A DNA stretch of 64,000 nt from Ginglymostoma cirratum (Eukaryota). The stretch is taken from assembly GCA_024137785.1 (NCBI GenBank), contig JAHRHZ010000144.1, forward strand, positions 43,095,514 to 43,159,513, given 5' to 3'. The translations under genes were made by a program, and so were the position numbers. Under the pieces are notes generated by a model. It worked only from the letters and a program-made list of their open reading frames with translations. It had not been told where the DNA came from and did not search any database. Below, piece after piece: positions 3,318 to 64,000 of the stretch (position 1 is the first letter of the stretch; every line of letters begins with the position of its first letter).

Positions 3318-3680
3318 GGTGGCATAGTAGCTCACTGGTTGGCATTTCTGCCTTGCTAAGAGTGAGGGACCCAAGTTTCATTCTAGCCTTGAGTGACTGT
3401 CTGTGTGGAGTTTGCACATTCTCCCAGCATCTATGTGGGTTTCTGCTCTGTGCTCCTGTTTCTTGCCACAGTCCAAAAATGCGCAGGTTAGGTGGATTGG
3501 CCATGCTAAATTGCCTCACAGTGTCCAGAGATGTGCAAGCTAGGTAGATTAGCCAGGGTAAACGTGTGGTTATGCAGAAAGGTAGGTGAACTTGTTCTGA
3601 GTCTGATACTGTTTAGAGGGTTGGTGCTGAATCGATGGGTTGAATGGCCTCTTTCCACACTGTAGAGATTCTGTGATTCT
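3318..3680 (+). mobile_element. HE1-type tRNA-derived V-SINE
   Basis: tRNA-like head, V-domain core TGTGTGGAGTTTGCACATTCTCC...GTGGGTTTC...CACAGTCCAAA, and a CR1-type tail ending GATTCTGTGATTCTA. Confidence 0.85.
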
Positions 3681-3875
3681 AAATTGTAATCATTGTCTCC
3701 ACAGTTTCCACTTTTACTTTCCTCCATGTCATGAGACTGATGTGATATGGTCTAGTAAGTTGTCAACTTTACGTACAATAATAGAATAAATTCCATATCG
3801 AGTTTGAGAGCAACACACTCTAATCTCAAGACAGAATCTTAAACCAAGCAAACTTCATAAACTGAGAGAGATGGG

Positions 3876-4836
3876 TCTAGGCCCAAAACCATTTTCAGCT
3901 GCTTTATCAATGACCTTCCCTCCATCACAAGGTCAGAAGTGAGGATTTTCGCCGATGATTGAACAATGTTCAGCACCATTCGTGATTCCTCAGACACTGA
4001 AGCAGTCCATGTTCACATGCAACATGATCTGGATAATATCCAGGCTTGGGCTGACAAGTGGTGAGTGATATTTGCACAACACAAATGCCTGGCTATGACC
4101 ATCACCAATAAGAGACAATCTAACCACCGTCCCTTGACATTCTATGGTGTTACCATCACTGAATCCCCCACTATCAACATCCTAGGTGTTATCATTGACC
4201 AGAAACTCAACTGGACTCACCACATTAACACAGTGGCTTCAAGAGCAGGCCAGAAGCTGGGAATACTGCGGCAGTAACTCATCTCCTGACTCCTCAAAGC
4301 CTGTCCACCATCTACAAGGCACAAGTCAGGAGTGTGATGGAATACTCCCCACTTGCCTGGATGAGTGCAGCCCCAACAACACTCGAAGCTTGACACCATC
4401 CAGGACAAAGCAACCTGCTTGATTGGCACTACATCCACAAACATTCACTCCGTCCACCACCGAGGCTCAGTAGCAGCGGTGTGCACTATCTACAAGATGC
4501 ATGGCAGAAATTCTCCAAAGATCCTCAGACAGCACCTTCCAAACCCACGACCACTTCCATCTAGAAAGACAAGGGCAGCAGATACATGGGAACACCACCA
4601 CCTCCAAGTTATCCTCCAAGCCACTCACCATCCTGACTTGGAAATATATCGCCGTTCCTTCACTGTAGCTGGGTCAAAATCCTGGAATTTCCTCCCTAAT
4701 AACATTGTGGGTCAATCCACAGCAAGTGGGATGCAGCGGTTCAAGAAGGCAGCTCACCACCAACTTCTCAAGGGCAACTAGGGATGGGCAAGAAATGCTG
4801 GCCAGCCAGCGATGCCCACATCCCACAAAATGAATA
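3876..4836 (+). mobile_element. 5'-truncated CR1/L2-group LINE, family B (RT C-terminal half plus 3' tail), relatively young copy
   Basis: LGP-TIFSCFINDLPS...FADD RT motifs and ILGVIIDQKLNWTHHI. Family-specific tail GGGCAACTAGGGATGGGCAAGAAATGCTGGCCAGCCAGCGATGCCCACATCCC. Confidence 0.9.
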
Positions 4837-6067
4837 GGAGAAAAAACTGCCCTTTTGATCTGAAAAATATATGGATACATTAAAGTCTTCCTGTGTTTAC
4901 CAGGTGCCTTCAAACATTCTCTGATCTGTGGAAGTGATATAAATAATTTAAACCCCATGGTTTACACCATCACTTCAGATCTCCCATGATCCCTGCACAC
5001 ATTCTGCCTGATATTCAAAAAAGCCATTATAATCCTCGGTATGTATACGTCTTGCTACTATCGCAGCAATACATTTAAGACTTCCCCTTAAATGCGCAAC
5101 TCCAGGCTTAGCTGGCAAGCTCTGTAGACCAAAATGTCTTACATCTATAACAAAATTCCAATTAAGTAACTAAAGAATAATCCTGTTATATATGCACTTT
5201 TATCAATAAGCTAATCTTCAGTATTGTATATGGAGTAAATGCACATTTCTTCATTTGAATAGGTAAAATAAGTTCCTTTTTTTGGCTGTTAGCAGAATGA
5301 TGACAAAATAGTACATTTGATGTTGGTAGAAAGATACAAGTAAACAGCCACAATTGTAGGAAATGAAAAAGAACATAAAATATAAGACCAGAAAATGAAA
5401 ATGTGAATTAGCCTTGCAGAGACACTTCACAAATTGGCATGTTTTCAACATATTTGTTCTTATTTATCATCATGTTGGTCAATACAGTTGAAGTTATTTA
5501 AAATTCATTGACTGTGAAAGTTGGAATTCAAAACAGTGACCAATCTAACTTTATTGGTTATAGTGACAGTATTGTCTATAAACCTTGGTAATGGCTTTGG
5601 CTTAAATAGGTTGCTACTAGCACATTTGAAAGGTTCAGTCTGGAGGGGAGATCAATCTCGCTGTCTGAGTACAAATTAATTTGACTGAAGACTACTAAAC
5701 ATTATAAAGATACAATGCCTTCTAATTCTATTAAAACTTTAGGTGGAGAAAATGTAAAGTGATATTTAAAATCACGCCAGGTGTTGTCAGTTTTGTCACA
5801 AGTGTTCCACAAGTGCCTCCTTTTTAATAAAAAAAATCCCGTTGATCTCTTGAGGCATTGCAGACAGAGTTATAATCATATGCTGTAAATAGGTCAAATA
5901 GGATCGAAAAGCGCAGGGAAAATTGGGCCCAAGCAGACTGAAAAATACTGGGTATGAAATTAGGATAACAGTATTTTGATATTAAAAGTGCCAAGTAGTT
6001 CAATGCAATTTCTGGACTGTCATAACTTCTAAAATGTTAATATGAGATTCAGCAATGGTCATTGAAT

Positions 6068-20226: not shown

Positions 20227-21027
20227 ATTGTATCAGTGCTACACCTGCCCCCACACCTCCTCTCTCACCCCAATCCCAGGCCCCAAGAAGAATTTCCACA
20301 TCAGGCAGAGGTTCACTTGCACATCTGCCAATGTGGTATACTGCATCCGCTGCACCCGTTGTGGCTTCCTCTACATCGGGGAAACCAAGCGGAGGCTTGG
20401 GGACTGCTTTGCAGAACACCTGCGCTCAGTTCGCAACAAACAACTGCACCTCCCAGTCGCGAACCATTTCAACTCCTCCTCCCATTCCTCAGATGACATG
20501 TCCATCCTTGGCCTCCTGCAATGCCACAGTGATGCCACCCGAAGGCTGCAGGAACAGCAAATCATATTCAGCCTGGGAACCCTGCAGCCCAATGACATCA
20601 ATGTGGATTTCACAAGCTTCAAAATCTCCCCTCCCTCAACCGCATCCCAAAACCAGCCCAGCTCATCTCCACCTCCCTAACCTGTTTTTCCTCTCACCTC
20701 AAGCCACACCCCCATCTCCTATCTACTAACATCATCCCGCCCCCTTGACCTGTCCGTCCTCCCTGGACTGACCTATCTCCTCCCTACCCCCCTACCTACA
20801 CTCACCTTTACTGGCTCCATCCCCGCCTCTTCGACTTGTCTGTCTCCTCTCCACCTATCCTCTCCTCTATCCATCCTCTATCCGCCTCCCCCTCTCTCCC
20901 TATTTATTTCAGAACCCTCTTCCCCTCCCCCATTTCTGATGAAGGGTTTAGGCCCGAAACGTCAAGTTTTCCTGCTCCTATGATGCTGCTTGACCTGCTG
21001 TGTTCATCCAGCCCCATGCTTGTTATC
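20227..21027 (+). mobile_element. 5'-truncated Penelope-like element (family P1): GIY-YIG endonuclease domain plus pseudo-LTR, flanked by a TSD
   Basis: ORF 20222-20680: CYTC..FTCTSANVVYCIRC..CGFLYIGETKRRLGDCFAEH..PVANHFN..E..LGTLQPNDIN. Direct repeat TTAGCCTGGATGAA at 20213-20226 and 21028-21041. Confidence 0.95.
20933..20966 (+). ncRNA. Minimal type I hammerhead ribozyme motif in PLE pseudo-LTR (putative)
   Basis: CTGATGA (20936-20942), A, GGGT/TTAG/GCCC stem II, GAAA (20956-20959), then CGTC, with predicted cleavage after C20963. Minimal HHR motifs are an established feature of PLE pseudo-LTRs. Activity cannot be shown from sequence. Confidence 0.6.
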
Positions 21028-21280
21028 TTAGCCTGGATGAATACATGACAAACATTGACTTGTACTGGGAAGACCTCAATGTATTGAAATGAATTTAAAA
21101 GAACTTCTAAAGTATTGAAAAAGTCTGATAAGATTTAAATTTGACCCCAGAACTGCTTATCTCCACAGGTGTCTAAACTGAAAACAAAAGCAATCAAAAG
21201 TGCTTACAAAATTTTGTAACCTATTTAGTATTCTTCTCTTACCACGCCATGGACCTGTTGTAAAACTGGCAGTTGCTTTA

Positions 21281-21510
21281 CAGAGATAAAAAGGTACTGC
21301 AGATGCTGGAGAATCCGAGATAACAAGCATGGGGCTGGATGAACACAGCAGGTCAAGCAGCATCATAGGAGCAGGAAAACTTGACGTTTCGGGCCTAAAC
21401 CCTTCATCAGAAATGGGGGAGGGGAAGAGGGTTCTGAAATAAATAGGGAGAGAGGGGGAGGCGGATAGAGGATGGATAGAGGAGAGGATAGGTGGAGAGG
21501 AGGCAGACAA
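21281..21510 (-). mobile_element. Penelope-like pseudo-LTR (family P1), inverted twin of 20836-21028
   Basis: 21318-21510 is the reverse complement of 20836-21028 with one mismatch that I could find. Confidence 0.95.
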
Positions 21511-24424: not shown

Positions 24425-24770
24425 AGAGGCAGTGGTGCAGTGATAATGTCACTGAATTTGTAATCTAGAACCCTATGCTCCTACTCCGGGAACATGGGTT
24501 TAAATCTGACATCTATCTGACAGATAGTTAAATTTGAATTCAAGAGAGATTTGGAATTAAAAGCTAGCCCATTAGCGACCACTGCCAATTGTTGTAAAAA
24601 TCCATCTGGTTCCTTATGTCTTTTGCGGAAGAAAATCTGCTGTTCTTGCCTGATGCAGCCCACATGGGACTCCAGAGTCTCAGCAAAATGGTTGACTCAA
24701 CTGTCCTCTGGGCAATTAAGGCAGGGCAATGAACGAGGGCCTAGCCAGCGATGCCCACAATGGAGAATCA
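24425..24770 (+). mobile_element. tRNA-derived SINE (family S-B) ending in the family B LINE tail
   Basis: Head GGCAGTGGTGCAGTGATAATG...GGGTTTAAATC, body AAATCCATCTGGTTC...GACTCCAGA, tail GGGCAATTAAGGCAGGGCAATG...CCTAGCCAGCGATGCCCACA. Confidence 0.8.
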
Positions 24771-24826
24771 TTTTAAAATTAATTTTAAATTTTCCAAGGG
24801 GCAAGTGGCTCACTTGCTGAAACTGC

Positions 24827-38570: not shown

Positions 38571-39514
38571 TTGGAGCGTCTGTGGAAATGTGACTGATGG
38601 CTATGTCTGACGCTACTGCTTTGGCAGAATCCTGAGGAGAACAATTTTACTAATGCACAAATTGAGTTGTTGTTTGTAATCTGGCTTCTTGGTTCCAAAG
38701 GGATGAGGCCCACAGAATACGTGATCTACATTTGTGGAGAAATGCGTCTTAACAATGATCTGTTTTAACAACCTTTGTGGTGTAGTCAATACAATAGCAG
38801 ATAGCATACTTTGTAACAAAGCATCCTAATGGACATATGTCACAGTTGCCACCATCCTGATGTCATTGTCTTGAACACCATTTGCAACTTATGTCTGTAC
38901 AGGAAGAACCACAAATTTTCCAAGTTCTTTTACTTTCAGAAGGTATTCCCAATCACAATTGATTATGTAGAAACACAATGGAAGATCAGTATTTAACTTC
39001 CAGTACTTGCTTTCACTTCCTATAAGGAATGTCTTCTCAAACTATACTTTGATAACTTTCAGAGTATCATCACTTTCTTGATCTTCTCTTTAAAAGGGAA
39101 TTAATTCGCCTCCAAAAGTAAATAAATATTTCCTCAAACATCCAAACTTGCGCTACAAATAAATTCCCACCCAACTCCTCATAGTGTTCTGCCAATCCAA
39201 GAGAAGTGGGTGGCTGACATTAAAATTATATGCTCTAATAGGTGTCAGTGGAAGATAGGTAATCTTCAGAAGTACATTTAGTATACACCACAATGCAGTT
39301 GGAGAAGAAGTTGCAGAATTTTGACCAAGTGACAGTGTATGACTATGATGGTATTTTCAAGTCAGGATGTTGAGTGTCTTGGAGAGGAACTTGGAGTAGG
39401 TGGTAATGTTACCGTGTATCTGTGGCCATTATTTTTTCAAAGGTAGTTGTCCTTGGTTTGGAAGGTGCTGACGAATGAGACATGGTGAATTTTTTGCAGT
39501 GAATCCTATAGATT

Positions 39515-39892
39515 TTTTTATGATTTGCTCATGGAATGTGGGCATCACTAGCTAGGCCACCATTTATTTCCCATCCCGAGTTGCACTTGGATTAAGAGTG
39601 ATGTACAACTGAGTGACTTGCTAGGCCATTTCAGAGGGCAGGTATGAGCCAGCCACATTGGTGGGGTCTGGGATCACATCTAGTTCAGATTGGTCAAGGA
39701 TGGAATTTACCTAGCTCAAAAATGATTAGAGAACTAGATGGGTTTTTATGCCAATTGACAATGGTTTCATGGTCATCATTAGATTTTTAATTCTAGATCT
39801 CTTTTCTACCTGCTCTAGTGGAATTCAAACCTAGATCCTGAGAACATTACCTCGGTCTCTGGATTATTAGCCTAATAGTAATACCATGAGGC
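39515..39892 (-). mobile_element. tRNA-derived SINE (family S-B), full length
   Basis: Reverse complement gives head (GGTTTGAATTCC B box), body, CCTCTGAAATGGCCTAGCAAGTCACTCAGTTGTAC, then the family B tail GGGATGGGAAATAAATGGTGGCCTAGCTAGTGATGCCCACATTCC. Confidence 0.85.
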
Positions 39893-39979
39893 ATCCTTAA
39901 AACATTGCTGCTACTTTGTTTGGTGGTTGACAGAGTTTGTGGATGTGGTGCCAATCAAATGAGCTGCTTTGAATTGTTT

Positions 39980-40104
39980 CAGAGATAGTAGGAATTGCAG
40001 ATGCTGGAGAATCTGAGATAGCAAGGTGTAGAGCTGGATGAACACTGCAGGCCAAGCAGCATCAGAGGAGCAGGAAAGCTGACGTTTCGGGCCTACACCC
40101 TCCT
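39980..40104 (-). mobile_element. PLE pseudo-LTR fragment (family P1) with apparent TSD
   Basis: CAGAGATAGTAGGAATTGCAGATGCTGGAG...GACGTTTCGGGCCTACACCC, flanked by GCTGCTTTGAAT at 39963-39974 and 40108-40119. Confidence 0.88.
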
Positions 40105-40656
40105 TTGGCTGCTTTGAATGTTGTTCAAGCTGCATTTATCTAGGAAAATGGGGAGTAAACCATCACACTCCTGACTTATGCCTTGTGGATGATGGACAAG
40201 CTTTGCTGCAGGATTCCTAGCCTCTGACCTGTTTTTGTAACCGCGGTATTTATATGGCTGGCCCAGTTCAGTTTCTAGTCCATGCTAACAGCCAAAATGT
40301 TGATAATGTGGAATTAAGTGATAGTAATATCAAAGCATAACGGTTAGATTCTCTTGTATTGGAAATTACCATTGTCACTTGTTTGGAACAAGTTTTACTT
40401 GTCTCTTGTCAGCCCAAACTTGGATATTGTCCAGGTCTTGCTGTTTTTGAACATGGGCTGCTTCAGTATCTGAAGAGTCACAAATAGCGTTGAATATTGT
40501 GCAATCATTTCTGAACTTCCCAATTTCTGACTTTATGATGAAAGGAAAGATCACTGACGAAGCAGATAAAAATGATTGGGCCTAGAACACTACCCTGTGG
40601 ACCTGCTGCAGACATGTCCTGGAGCTGAGATGACTGACCTCCAAAAGCCATCACTA

Positions 40657-41680
40657 TAAGTGTGAGGTGATGCAGTTTAGAAGGTTAAATGCAAGAGGAA
40701 AGTATACAGTAAAGGTTAGGACCTTTAGGAACATTGATATACAGAGGTATCTTGGGGGTGCAAGTCCATAACTACTTGAAAGTGCCAACGCAAGTGGAAG
40801 AGGCAATGGCCTAGTGGTATTATTGCTGGACTGTTAATCCAGAGACCTGGATAACATTCTGGGGACCTGGGTTCAAATCCCACCATGGCAGATGGTGGAA
40901 TTTGAATTCAATAAAACATCTGGAATTAACAGTCTAATGATGACCATGAATCCATTCTCAATTGTTGGAAAAACCCATTTGGTTCACTAATGTCTTTTAG
41001 GGAAGGAAATTCCCTTAAAAAAAGGTGATACAGAAGGCATACGGCATGCTTGCCTCCATCGGCTAGACGCTTGAGTATAAAAGTTGGCAAGTCATGTTGC
41101 AGCTGTACAAAACAGTTAAAGCTGTTAGGCCATGTTTGAGTATTGTGTGCAATTCTGGTTGCCACACTATAGGAAGAACGTGGAGGCTTTGGAGAAGGTA
41201 CAAAAGAGGTTTACTAGGATGTTACCTGGATTGAGTGTATTAACTGTAAGGTGAGATTGGACAAATTTAGGTTGTTTTTGAGAAAGCACTGAAGGCTGAG
41301 GGGCAACCTGATAATAAGAATGTAAAATTAAGAGAGGCATTAGAAGTGTGGATAACTGGAGTCTTTTTCCCAGGATGATATGTCCTACACTAGGAGCCAT
41401 AGGTTTAAGGTGAGAGGGTGAAAGTTTGAAGGAGATGTGAAAGGCAAGTATTTTTACATAGGGGCTGGTAGGTGCCTGGAATGTGCTGCCAGGGAAGTTG
41501 GTAGAAGCAGGTATGATAGCTACGTTTAAGAGGCATTTAGACAGCACATGAAGAGGCAGGGATGAAGGGATATGGACCATGTGTGGACTGTCAGGATTGG
41601 TTTAGAGTTGCATCATGGTTGGCAGACACATGGTGGACCAAAGGGCCTCTTCCTGTGCTGTACTACATTCTGTGCTCTAT
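40657..41680 (+). mobile_element. CR1 LINE (family A) 3' fragment inserted in the family B LINE
   Basis: AAGTGTGAGGTGATGCA (KCEVM) start, RPCLSIVCNSG (decayed RPHLEYCVQFW), and a 3' UTR ending TTCTGTGCTCTAT. Confidence 0.88.
40798..41012 (+). mobile_element. tRNA-derived SINE (family S-B), head plus partial body, inside the CR1
   Basis: A box TGGCCTAGTGG at 40807-40817 and B box GGTTCAAATCC at 40870-40880. Confidence 0.88.
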
Positions 41681-43692
41681 CACCATCTTTCTTTGTGCCA
41701 GGCATGACTAACCAGCTGACAGATTTCTCCCTGATGCCCATTGATTGTACATTTTTCTAGAGCTCCTTAATGCCACATTTGTTCAAGTGTAGCCATGATG
41801 TCATGACCGGTCCCACTCACCTTACCTCTGGAATTCCACACTCTGTCTGTGTTTGAACCAGGAGCTGAGTGTTTCTGGCAGAGCCCAACTTGAGTGTCCG
41901 TGAGCAGGTTATGGCTGAGCAGGTGCTGCTTGTTGTCACTGTTGATGACATCTTCCAGCTTTACTGATGATTGAGAGTAAACTGATGGGGCAGTAATTGC
42001 TGATAATATTTGTCCTCATTTTTGTGTGCAGGGACGTGCTTGGGAAATTTTCCACTTTGCCATGCAAATACTACTGTTGTAGCTCTGCTGGAACAGCTTG
42101 GCTAGGGCTGCAGCAAGTTGTGGAGAACAAGTCTTTACATCTATTGCTGGGATGGTATCACACGCCATAGCCTTTGCAATGCCCAGTGTTTTCAGGTATT
42201 TATTGATATTGCATGGAGTGAATTGAATTGGCTGAAGACTGGCAACCCTGATGCTGGAGACCTCAGGAGGAAGCAGAGATGGATCATTCACTCAGCACTT
42301 CTGATTGAAGCTGGATACAATAGCTTCAGTCTTATCCTTTGCACTGATATGCTGGGCTCCCCCATCATTGAGAGTAGGGGCATTTGTAGTGAGTTGTAGC
42401 AGGCCTGCAGAGCTTAGACCTGATCCATTGGTTGTGGGATTGCTTCTCTCTATCTGTTTGTTGCTCCATTTGACTTTTGGCGCACAAGTATTCCTGTACT
42501 GTGGCATCACCAAATTGACAGCATTTTTTTTAGCTGTACTTGGTGCTACTCCTGCATGCCGTCCTGAACTTTTCATTGGGATTTACTCCTATGGTAGATT
42601 GGGAGATATGCCGAGCCATGAGGATACAGTTTCTGTTTGAGTACAATTCTGCTACTGCTGATGGGTTGCTAGATGTGTTCAAATACTATCCTATTTAGCA
42701 TAGTGATAACACCGCACAGCATGATGTAAGGTATTTTCAGTGTGAAAACTGGACTTCATTTCCACAAGGTCTGTGTAGTGGTCACTGTCAGTAACACTGA
42801 CAAGGGCAGATGCATCTGCAGCAGGAAAAATTGGTGGGGATGGGTCAAGTATGTTTTTCCTTCTTGTTGGTTCCCTTGCCACCTGCCATGCACCTAATCT
42901 AGCAGCTGTGTCCTTTAAGACTCAACATCTTGGTCAGTAGTGGTGCTGCTGATCCATGCCTGGCGACCGACATTCAATTCCCCAAAACAGTGTGCAATCT
43001 TTCCACTCTTAGAGCTTCCACCAATTTCTGTTCAGCATGGAGGAGGACTGATTCATCTGCTGAGGATGGTTGGTCAGGCATAGTTAGCAAGAGGTTTTCT
43101 GACTCATGTTGACCTGATATCATGAGACATCATCAGGCCCAGTGTCAATAGTGAGGACTTCCAGGGCAAATACCTCCCAAATGTATGCCACTGTCAGATG
43201 GACACCCAGGGTTAGTGATGGTGTTATGATAGTCATACTCACAGCATTGTATCTTAAAGAAAATGTCAGGCTGTTGCTTGACTAGTCTGTGAGACATCTC
43301 TCCTGCTAGTTCAGATGTGGTAAAGAAAACTTTGCAAAGTCGATTGAGCTGAGTTTGCCATTGTCACTTAAAGTGCGAAGGTTGATGGCAGATGGTCCAT
43401 CTGGTTTCATTCCATTTTTTAGTGGTTTCATTGATTTTACTAAATTCAAATTTCACTGCCTACCATGGTAGAATTTGAACCCATGTCTCCAGAACATAAG
43501 CCTGGTGTTATGGATTATTAGCCTGGTAATAATATCATTATACCACCCTCTCCCTCTTTGAAGGTGTGGATAGCTAACAGAATTTGTCAATGATGTTTGT
43601 AGTTCTCATACTGCTTCTCCTCCTCTGTACAAAAGGAAACGGGGGAATCTGAAACAGAGTTCATCATTTTCTGATGGCATGCCTATTACGTT

Positions 43693-59520: not shown

Positions 59521-60312
59521 CTCTGAAATGGCCTATCAAGCCATTCAGTTCTAACAGTCGCTACAAAAAGAAATGAAACCAGACAGAACTACTAGGCACT
59601 AGAAACAGCAATGGAAGAAACAGCACTGTAGATACTGCAAAGTCTTTCTTAGTAACATCTGGTGGCTAGTGACAAACTTGGAAAGCTGTCTCACAAACTG
59701 GTCAGCAATAGCCTGACAGTCATACTCACAGGATCATACATTACAAGAATGTCCTTGACGTCACCTGACTCCCCAAAGCCTATTCACGAATTACAAGGCA
59801 AAGACAGGAGTGTGATGGAATGCTTTCAACTTGCCTGAATGAGTTCAGCTCCAATAACACGTGAAGCTAGATATCATCCAGGACAAAGTAGCCCACTTGA
59901 TTTGTATCACATCCACAAACATCCACTCCCTCCACCACCGACAGTCAGAGCAACAATGTGTACCATTTGTAAGATGCACTGCAGAAGTTCAAGCAAGATC
60001 CTTAACATCTTCCAAATCCACAACCACGACCATCTAGAAGGACAAGAGCAGCAGGTACACGGGCATACCACCACCGGCGAGTTCCCCTCCAAGTCACTCA
60101 CAATCCTGTCTTGGAAATATCATGCCAATTCTTTAGTTTTGTTGGGCCAAAATCCTGGAGTTCTATCTGGAATGGCATTATGGGTCTATGTACAGTAAAT
60201 GGACTGCTGAGGATCAGGCAAGCAACTCACCACCACATTCTTTAGGTCAGCTAGGAATGGGTAATAAATGCTGGCCCTGCCAGTGATGTCCATGTCCCAC
60301 AAGTGAACTTAA
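59521..60312 (+). mobile_element. Internally deleted family B LINE (SINE-shared 5' body plus EN start fused to RT C-terminus and tail)
   Basis: Begins CTCTGAAATGGCCTATCAAGCCATTCAGTT, then CKVFLSNIWWLV..PD.VILT (EN N-terminus). At about 59760 it jumps to CCTGACTCCCCAAAGCC (equivalent to 4286) and runs to the tail. Confidence 0.85.
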
Positions 60313-60314
60313 AA

Positions 60315-60520
60315 AATTGTTACTCCAGGATATGATTGAAGTGCGTTGCATAGATACATTTAGGGGAAAGGTACAGAAGCCAGCGAGGGAGAAGAGAATG
60401 GGTGGTTTTGATGGTAAATTTAGATGGGAAAAGATTGGAGGAGACTGAGTGGAGCGTGAAGATCTTCAGAGACCTGTTCGGCTGAATAGCTATTTCTGTA
60501 CTATGTGTAATCCTATGTAA
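60315..60520 (+). mobile_element. CR1-type 3' UTR fragment
   Basis: GATTGAAGTG..ATAGATACATTTAGGGGAAAG...GACCTGTTCGGCTGAATAGCTATTTCTGTACT. Confidence 0.55.
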
Positions 60521-61790: not shown

Positions 61791-62269
61791 ATGAGGAGGT
61801 GATGTTCTGGGGCTGTGCTGATTGACCTCCAATGACCACAGCCATCTTCCTCTTGTGCTATGTCTGACTCCAACCAGTAAAGCGCATTCCCTAGTTTCTG
61901 TTGACTTTTCTGTGGACTTCTTGATGCTGTTCTTGGTCAAATGCTGCCTTGATGCCAAGGGTAATCACTCTCACCCCACCTTTATGTTCATCTCTTATGT
62001 CATTGTTTGGGCCAAGGCTGTAACTAAATCAGGAGCTGAGTGGCCCTGGCAGAACCCAAACTGAGCATTTTTTTTCTTTGCAACCGCTGCTTGGTAGCAC
62101 TGTCAAAGATCCATTCTATTACTTTGCTGATGATTGCAACTTGACTGACAGATTGGCCAGGTTGGATTGATTTGCCTTTTGTGAACAGGTCATACCTGGG
62201 CAACTTTCCACATTGTCAGACATATGCTAGTGTTCTAGCTGTACTGAAACAGTTTGGTTAGTGATGTAT

Positions 62270-62401
62270 CAGAGATAATAGGTACTGCAGGTGCTGGAGA
62301 ATCCGAGATAACAAGGCATGGAGCTGGATGAACACAGCAGGCCAACCAGCATCTTAGGAGCAGGAAAGCTTGACGTTTCGGGCCTAGACCAATTTCTGAT
62401 G
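62270..62401 (-). mobile_element. PLE pseudo-LTR (family P1) inserted in the family B LINE, running into the assembly gap
   Basis: CAGAGATAATAGGTACTGCAGGTGCTGGAGAATCCGAG...GACGTTTCGGGCCTAGACC. Confidence 0.9.
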
Positions 62402-62801
62402 NNNNNNNNNNNNNNNNNNNNNNNNNNNNNNNNNNNNNNNNNNNNNNNNNNNNNNNNNNNNNNNNNNNNNNNNNNNNNNNNNNNNNNNNNNNNNNNNNNN
62501 NNNNNNNNNNNNNNNNNNNNNNNNNNNNNNNNNNNNNNNNNNNNNNNNNNNNNNNNNNNNNNNNNNNNNNNNNNNNNNNNNNNNNNNNNNNNNNNNNNNN
62601 NNNNNNNNNNNNNNNNNNNNNNNNNNNNNNNNNNNNNNNNNNNNNNNNNNNNNNNNNNNNNNNNNNNNNNNNNNNNNNNNNNNNNNNNNNNNNNNNNNNN
62701 NNNNNNNNNNNNNNNNNNNNNNNNNNNNNNNNNNNNNNNNNNNNNNNNNNNNNNNNNNNNNNNNNNNNNNNNNNNNNNNNNNNNNNNNNNNNNNNNNNNN
62801 N
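62402..62801. other. Assembly gap (400 N)
   Basis: Run of N. Confidence 1.
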
Positions 62802-64000
62802 TATATTTTGTGCTGGGCTTCCCCATTATTGAGGATGGGGATATTTGTTGCGCTTCCTCCTCCGGTGAGGTGTTTAATTGTCCACCACCATTCACTACTG
62901 GATGTGTCTTGATTGCAAAGTTTAGAACTGATCCATTGGTGTGAGATTGCTTAGTCCTATTTATCACACATTGCTTTCACTGTTCCACATGCAGGTAGTC
63001 CTGTGTTAAAGCATGACCAGGTTGAAAACTAATTTTTAGGTTCATCGAGTTCTGCTGCAGGAATTCCCTCTTGCACTCTTCAGTAAAATAGGGTTGCTCT
63101 CCCGCTGTGAAGATAATTGTAGTGCAGGGGATATTGTGGGCTATTTGACTGTGGTCAAATATAATTATTTTGCGACTGAAGACCCACCTTATGGATGCCC
63201 AGTTTTGAGTAGTTAGATCTGTTCAAGGTCCATCTAATTTTGCATGCTGGTAATGCTACAGAGCATGATAGACCGTGGCCTCAGCATGAAGACCGGACTT
63301 CATCTTGACAAGAGCAGTGAGATAGTCAACCCCTATAATACTGTGTGTACAGATGCAGCTGTGATAGGTTGATTGGTGAGGATGAGACCAAAATGATTTT
63401 TCTCTTATGTTCGTTCCCTCACCACCTGTCACCAACACAGTGTACAAGCTATGCCCTTTAGTACTCAGCCAGTTTGGACAGTAGTGGTACTACTTAGTCA
63501 CACTTAATAACACCCTTTAAAGTCCCCCATCAAGAATATGTTCTGTGTCCTTGCCACCCTCAATGCTTCCTCAAAGTGTTTTTCAATATGGACTGCTGAT
63601 TTGTCAGCTGAGATGATGGGGTGGGGCAGTCAGTATAGTAAGCAGCCGGAGGTTTCTTCACCCAGTGTTTGACCCGATGCCATGCATATTCCTGTGGTTG
63701 GAGACAATGTTGAGGATTCCTAGGATAACTTCTTCCTAACTGTGTTATCACCTCTTCTGGGTTTGCCCTGCTGGTGAGACGGGACACATCAAGGGATGCT
63801 AAAGGTTTTATGTGGGTCATTGTCTGTATGGTTTGATTCTGAGAGATTGACTATTGCAGTCTGTAGTACACCTCTCCAAATTTTAGTTCACACCCCCAGA
63901 TTTTGGTGAAGAAGACTTTGCACGGTTGATAGGGCTATGTTCGTCATTGTAATTTCTAGAGTCCAGGTTGCTACTAGGTGGTCCATTCAGTTTTCTTCCT

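Follow-up and report, generated by a model that had tools for sequence, protein, structure and literature searches.

A window of 64,000 nucleotides (nt) from Ginglymostoma cirratum (assembly GCA_024137785.1, contig JAHRHZ010000144.1, positions 43,095,514 to 43,159,513 of the forward strand; coordinates below count from its first letter) contains copies of a CR1-group long interspersed nuclear element (LINE), here called family B, and of a short interspersed nuclear element (SINE), here called S-B, which opens with a tRNA-like head. The same head adjoins one of the family B copies, and the end of the S-B body adjoins another at the same position. In our judgement, which rests on one deletion-rich copy beginning at 43553 on the minus strand, the head probably belongs to the LINE itself.

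The family B LINE and the S-B SINEs

The features on which the argument depends are as follows, with EN for endonuclease, RT for reverse transcriptase, ORF for open reading frame and UTR for untranslated region.

43442..43553, minus strand: tRNA-derived head of the LINE copy, 5'-complete, starting at the start point of the SINE heads
43337..43429, minus strand: LINE leader from head to EN motif
41686..43336, minus strand: EN and the opening half of the RT of family B, fragmented and with many deletions
40130..40655, minus strand: second half of the family B RT in the same copy, beyond a CR1 insertion
39285..39975, minus strand: family B C-terminal part, split by the SINE S2, with the final ~110 nt (the tail) missing
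59521..59550, plus strand: S-B body end that opens a second LINE copy, with a candidate start ATG at 59528
59551..60315, plus strand: second family B copy, bipartite, with leader and EN start as far as ~59757, from where it skips to the 3' part with the tail
61853..64000, minus strand: third 5'-long family B copy, its leader cut by the window end
3872..4840, plus strand: best-preserved family B 3' part (RT end, ORF stop, stem-loop tail), 5'-truncated
24425..24784, plus strand: S1, with head, body and tail; its body-to-tail joint differs and is without the 30-nt block
39512..39895, minus strand: S2, with head, body, the shared 30-nt block (39636-39607) and, from family B, the final codons of the ORF plus the 3' UTR
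40799..41015, plus strand: S3, with the best-preserved head and a partial body but no tail, within a CR1 insertion within the LINE

The best-preserved RT piece of family B matches RVT_1; at E 3e-6 the match falls short of the curated cut-off. The piece retrieves 10,921 proteins at E <=0.001, and the relatives P0029, P0070, P0044 and P0015 carry both EN and RT. Neither of the two EN pieces tried from the window gave a Pfam match; the EN is identified by motifs and colinearity. In trees built by a quick method from 64 of 151 proteins and then from 94 rows, family B falls within a 22-row clade of unnamed invertebrate-type EN-RT proteins of ~950 aa (Shimodaira-Hasegawa-like approximate likelihood ratio test, 95). 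Since these trees hold no named Zenon sequence, the term 'Zenon-like' is based on motifs: by eye, Zenon-1_Hmel and Zenon-1_PXu share EN, RT and C-terminal motifs with family B (PMC6740152 supplement). Family B is thus, as judged from its sequence, a Zenon-like, CR1-group LINE with a single predicted EN-RT ORF, and its pieces sum to a probable full length of ~3.3-3.5 kb. Its copies are 59-77% identical to one another in pairwise comparison, and the folding of the hairpin in the LINE tail has a z of -1.9 relative to shuffles.

In the copy at 43553 the leader begins ~15 nt past the head and the EN start (CKV, ~43336) follows 89 nt further on, which leaves no space for an ORF1; a short 5' region of this kind fits a CR1-group LINE of Zenon type, and the same leader recurs in two other copies. 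It is probably a basic N-terminal extension of the ORF. Upstream DNA could be read for two relatives, L001 and L041: in both the ORF begins ~25 codons ahead of the EN motif, and the sense strand shows no ORF1, since nothing upstream of the ORF is open for 150 aa or more. The distant EN-RT hits P0035, P0046 and P0119 carry an N-terminal NPGP motif, which we take to be 2A-like; none is present in the family B leader as read. The single ORF of the original prediction therefore stands, but its description as an unusual trait does not: lepidopteran CR1 elements may have one ORF, with Zenon at ~3.3-3.5 kb (PMC6740152), and the absence of ORF1 is ordinary for a Zenon-like family.

The same head opens all three S-B SINEs, at 24425(+), 39895(-) and 40799(+), as had been claimed from the sequence. 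Together with the head on the LINE this makes four in the window, where a covariance model found no fifth (the next match, at 27 bits, is the antisense of a known copy). The A and B boxes of S3 match the consensus perfectly, and its head, at 40803-40890, is the one tRNA-like call made by ARAGORN in the window. An Rfam search gave no match, and the four heads fold no better than shuffled sequences (z from -0.2 to -1.8). In structure S-B fits a tRNA-derived SINE (SINE2), having a tRNA-like head with A and B boxes, a LINE-derived tail and no ORF. It also has 5' and 3' sequence in common with its partner LINE, in the manner of a short internally deleted element (SIDE); the SIDE Persaeus is described as lacking a tRNA head or RNA polymerase III (Pol III) promoter, whereas S-B has both boxes.

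The relationship to family B extends over both ends. The S-B tail is 84% identical to that of family B over 58 nt; downstream of the 30-nt block S2 matches the last family B ORF codons, the stop region and the hairpin tail; and the S-B body stops where the family B leader starts. With both ends in common, and with the last codons of the ORF inside the tail, the proposal that S-B is family B with its ORF deleted held up, and the comparison supports S-B as a putative internal-deletion derivative sharing both ends with its parent, similar to Persaeus with the addition of a tRNA head. The differing joints of S1 and S2 were considered as independent deletions of the LINE, a reading that was dropped because an S2-type SINE that lost more sequence would explain S1 just as well. 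By eye, the S-B body is unlike the Deu, Meta and UCON3 domains printed in the supplement of PMC7245038, so that S-B was set apart from MetaSINE and UCON3 and from SacSINE1, whose body is of Deu type and whose tail comes from L2 (PMC5499810). Inspection by eye of five elements revealed no clear target-site duplication.

Two joints between S-B sequence and the LINE leader

Minus-strand positions 43553-43442 align with the SINE head at 40792-40916 at 73% identity across 126 nt; the local score is 113, where the highest of 500 shuffles gave 49, in agreement with the earlier claim of a tRNA-like head adjoining family B in the same orientation. Its A box (43545-43535) and B box (43481-43471) each show one mismatch to the consensus. 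From this head the sequence runs to the leader without the ~160 nt of body found in S-B. The copy as a whole carries 10 alignment gaps of at least 10 nt in ~2.3 kb, two of them where inserts had been cut out and some perhaps insertions in the partner copy instead, compared with none in 1199 nt and none in 975 nt of the comparison copies; because this copy has so many deletions, the loss of its body is read as one more. The region 39285-43553 is nested, the LINE holding a CR1 insertion (~40655-41680) that contains S3, together with S2 and a short repeat, from which it follows that S-B activity outlasted the insertion of both this LINE copy and the CR1.

The second copy opens at 59521 with the last block of S-B body before the SINE jumps to its tail, a claim that was upheld: 59521-59550 and the S2 body end (39636-39607) agree in 27 of 30 positions, and the window contains no further match to a pattern that combines both blocks. 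The leader that follows is the same as in the copy at 43553 (score 95; 0 of 500 shuffles as high), and ATG 59528 is in frame with the EN motif. The whole of 59521-60315(+) forms a two-ended deletion element of ~800 nt, perhaps the product of one isolated event, perhaps a member of another non-autonomous family. Among the three 5'-long copies, then, one has the head, one is truncated within the body and one is cut by the window end, and at both readable 5' ends S-B sequence meets the same leader on the same strand without a SINE tail. The joints differ in that 59521 has kept the final 30 nt of body sequence, whereas 43553 carries the head without the body.

Might S-B fragments simply have inserted beside LINE fragments? 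S-B does insert into family B copies (two of its three copies have done so), and one S-B copy is without a tail. Chance is nevertheless a very unlikely explanation, because both events would have had to strike the same leader position on the same strand and neither joint has a SINE tail; in addition, the block at 59521 is the exact sequence at which S2 jumps to the tail. A rough estimate of the coincidence between S-B and the leader is 9e-4 for each joint and 9e-7, or ~1e-6, for both, assuming uniform placement, which is inexact because two of the three S-B copies lie inside the copy at 43553.

The difference between the joints could also mean that there are two LINE subfamilies, one with head and leader but no body, of which 43553 would be a real master, and a body-bearing form represented by 59521. 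Pairwise identities as low as those among family B copies make subfamilies likely, and loss of the body would remove a run of at least four T residues (T4+) common to the S-B bodies. Each joint was observed once, however, and the candidate start codon goes with the body, and we give this arrangement little credence, if slightly more than chance insertion.

A weightier alternative, possible though on balance doubtful, is that the LINE is headless. The body would then be its Pol II 5' UTR, the head would have joined a bipartite derivative by the route of Okada and Kojima, and 43553 would be a one-off chimera made when RT switched from the leader to an S-B RNA. Such a route to SINEs with LINE 5' and 3' parts is published (PMC5786205), and SINE/LINE chimeras are known, mostly on the same strand, including 452 Alu/L1 cases (PMC13174262). 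The ~160-nt body is the size of a Zenon 5' UTR (the ORF of Zenon-1_Hm starts at 172; PMC4016481), its T4+ run would be harmless under Pol II, and the S-B body has a short repeat, ATGAAAC, in common with the 43553 joint. The explanation nevertheless requires a rare event to strike the only copy that reaches that far, at the leader, and to take the head alone, where a deletion is simpler in a copy that has many. Alu/L1 chimeras mostly pair a full-length Alu with a LINE prone to 5' truncation (PMC13174262); the 43553 joint does not have this layout, a difference that is counted in favour of a head of the LINE's own; so too is the layout of S-B, with the last ORF codons in its tail and a body ending at the leader, which is that of Persaeus. 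Moreover, in the portion available Kojima found LINE 5' parts in the middles of SINEs for RTE and Vingi only (PMC5786205), so that a headless LINE would itself be new for the CR1 group.

Several observations count against a head belonging to family B. No copy unites head, body and ORF, and the head is on one LINE copy. A tail-less S-B piece (S3) exists, and two of the three S-B copies sit in this very LINE copy. In S2 a stop comes at codon 3 after the ATG, for which reason the start codon is given as a candidate. Relatives supply further points. A protein-profile scan of a collection of prokaryotic contigs yielded 72 loci with related RTs, presumably host DNA in metagenome-assembled genomes (MAGs); none of these is close to family B, and L001, L002, L041 and L054 are in its wider clade. 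ARAGORN found no tRNAs in the 34 of the 72 loci tested, a model of the head had no match at E <1 in the 24 tested, and a scan of 24 upstream regions for A and B boxes returned one weak pair and none for L041 (a loosened ARAGORN run gave noise and was not used). Because these relatives are without the head, it is best read as a lineage-specific gain, within the limit that so few of the 72 loci are near family B.

The same material yielded some incidental observations. By eye, L001 (730-1000) and L041 (4010-4260) have a similar 5' UTR without a tRNA head. Dozens of contigs in bacterial MAGs, many of them in Sedimenticola and Thiodiazotropha bins, carry intact animal-type LINE ORFs, and L041 and L070 lie on a 716-kb contig labelled Endozoicomonas, a probable case of host contamination. 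Three word-based searches for proteins that would run across the body-leader joint or the EN start gave 119, 0 and 6 candidates, and none among the 119 or the 6 scored, a weak negative given decayed queries and bounded lengths. A 20-nt pattern of the shared block had no match in prokaryotic genome contigs, nor was there any motif match in the published supplements searched, including the portions available of PMC4824008 (all but one file).

On the reading that we favour, in which the head is the LINE's own, a full-length family B element would consist of the tRNA-derived head (~112 nt), a body of ~160 nt, the ORF, a short stem-loop 3' UTR and poly(A). The original prediction of head plus body as the 5' UTR survives in that S-B sequence lies at both joints; the complete arrangement is pieced together from two copies, with the head seen once, and we infer its continuity. 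LINEs are copied by target-primed reverse transcription, and the family B RT would copy RNAs bearing its tail, often skipping internal sequence to give short two-ended elements such as S-B and the 800-nt copy at 59521. S-B would then be SINE-like only because the 5' end of its parent is a tRNA head. The copy at 43553 would be a 5'-complete insertion minus the body, and that at 59521 one 5'-truncated within the body. The head itself may have been gained in this lineage, probably through a template switch to a tRNA or to the RNA of a tRNA-derived SINE.

Transcription and neighbouring repeats

If this structure is right, whether the A and B boxes drive Pol III transcription of the whole element is a guess at roughly even odds. 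Taken together, the proposition that an autonomous LINE took a tRNA head as its promoter, is transcribed end to end by Pol III and makes its EN-RT from an uncapped RNA, with a SINE as its own deletion product and the SINE body as the LINE 5' UTR, is tentative and, we think, rather improbable. A majority sequence of family B from three to six copies has no run of four T residues in 807 columns, where the numbers for two CR1 controls are 4 (801 columns) and 3 (1870 columns). Against this, T is scarce in family B, and L002, a relative that is likewise T-poor, contains a single such run in 2859 nt.

The raw sequences speak less well for Pol III: family B copies contain 19 such runs, a count not below that of shuffles (14.8 +/- 3.3), and one site in the RT is common to both copies that cover it (2 of the 19 runs). 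All three S-B bodies, furthermore, have a T4+ run at a similar place (~24620, ~39718 and ~40995), possibly a Pol III terminator ahead of the ORF, and in the portion available Kojima argues that Pol III processivity restricts the length of elements (PMC10886601). S3 ends ~20 nt past its T4+ run, after which comes A7.

Other repeats share the window. An inverted pair of 193 nt at 20836-21028 and 21318-21510 is 99.5% identical, far younger than the other repeats, and could be a young element resembling a miniature inverted-repeat transposable element or an assembly artefact; the short repeat family to which it belongs also interrupts two family B copies (39975-40105 and 62265-62390). A different tRNA-like head lies at 12540-12470(-), with A and B boxes 42 nt apart; it is not S-B and no recognisable body follows it. 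Another SINE family, presumably V-SINE/HE1-like, occurs at 44165-44044(-) and 3365-3443(+), one copy lying ~500 nt upstream of the LINE head. The CR1 tails of the window resemble the CR1_CM tails printed in the supplement of PMC7245038, which, together with the repeat types present, fits a cartilaginous fish as the host.

Comparison with known systems

In the usual division, LINEs are transcribed by Pol II and SINEs by Pol III, with only the tail in common (PMC10886601), and the origin of SINE bodies is an open question for which a LINE 5' UTR source has, in the text available, been shown for RTE and Vingi only (PMC5786205). Under either of the leading readings S-B would be a CR1-group case with a body traceable to the 5' end of a LINE. 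If the head is the LINE's own, there would be a one-step route from LINE to SINE, and it would become testable whether a tRNA-type promoter can yield a coding RNA of 3.4 kb. Our search of full-text literature, which left most subscription journals outside and did not extend to Repbase, Dfam or SINEBase, brought up neither a CR1/Zenon LINE described as having a tRNA head nor an account of this shark pair.

The SINEs nearest in layout are CoeSINE4, SINE2_Gav and WALLSI2, which like S-B combine a tRNA head with LINE 5' and 3' parts; their partners are RTE or Vingi elements and the head is on the SINE only, whereas S-B has a CR1-group partner of which one copy bears the head (PMC5786205). A single sentence of the same source provides a precedent for LINEs containing tRNA-like sequence, namely RTE-1_DAn and elements related to it, which belong to the RTE clade. 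Among chondrichthyan SINEs, SacSINE1 and CmiSINE, described together with L2-2_CM, are tRNA-headed like S-B, but have a Deu or CORE body and an L2 tail, where the tail of S-B is that of family B (PMC5499810). Alu/L1 and tRNA/L1 chimeras resemble the copy at 43553 in fusing small-RNA or SINE sequence to the 5' end of a LINE, but those described are single events, in which the Alus are mostly full-length and the tRNAs mostly antisense halves, with no shared body (PMC13174262).

CR1-Zenon-like LINEs have been reported among the repeat classes of whale shark (bioRxiv 10.1101/443036), and in bivalves CR1-Zenon is a tail donor for SINEs, with curated elements that average 5.2 kb (PMC11481361, PMC10294476); the portions available describe no 5' structure for either. 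Zenon itself is the closest counterpart of family B, with a single EN-RT ORF, a length of ~3.3-3.5 kb and, by eye, the same EN start and the motifs LD..KAFDRVWH, Y.AQVR..MEY and C-terminal FKK..HH.L.KG (PMC6740152). The Zenon 5' ends displayed there have no tRNA head by eye, and their tails differ from those of family B and S-B. Persaeus retains the 5' UTR, ORF start, ORF end and 3' UTR of Zenon and, as described in the same source, has neither similarity to tRNA nor a Pol III promoter (PMC6740152). A deletion derivative of Zenon is therefore already known, and the new feature in Ginglymostoma cirratum is a tRNA head on a pair that works like Zenon and Persaeus.

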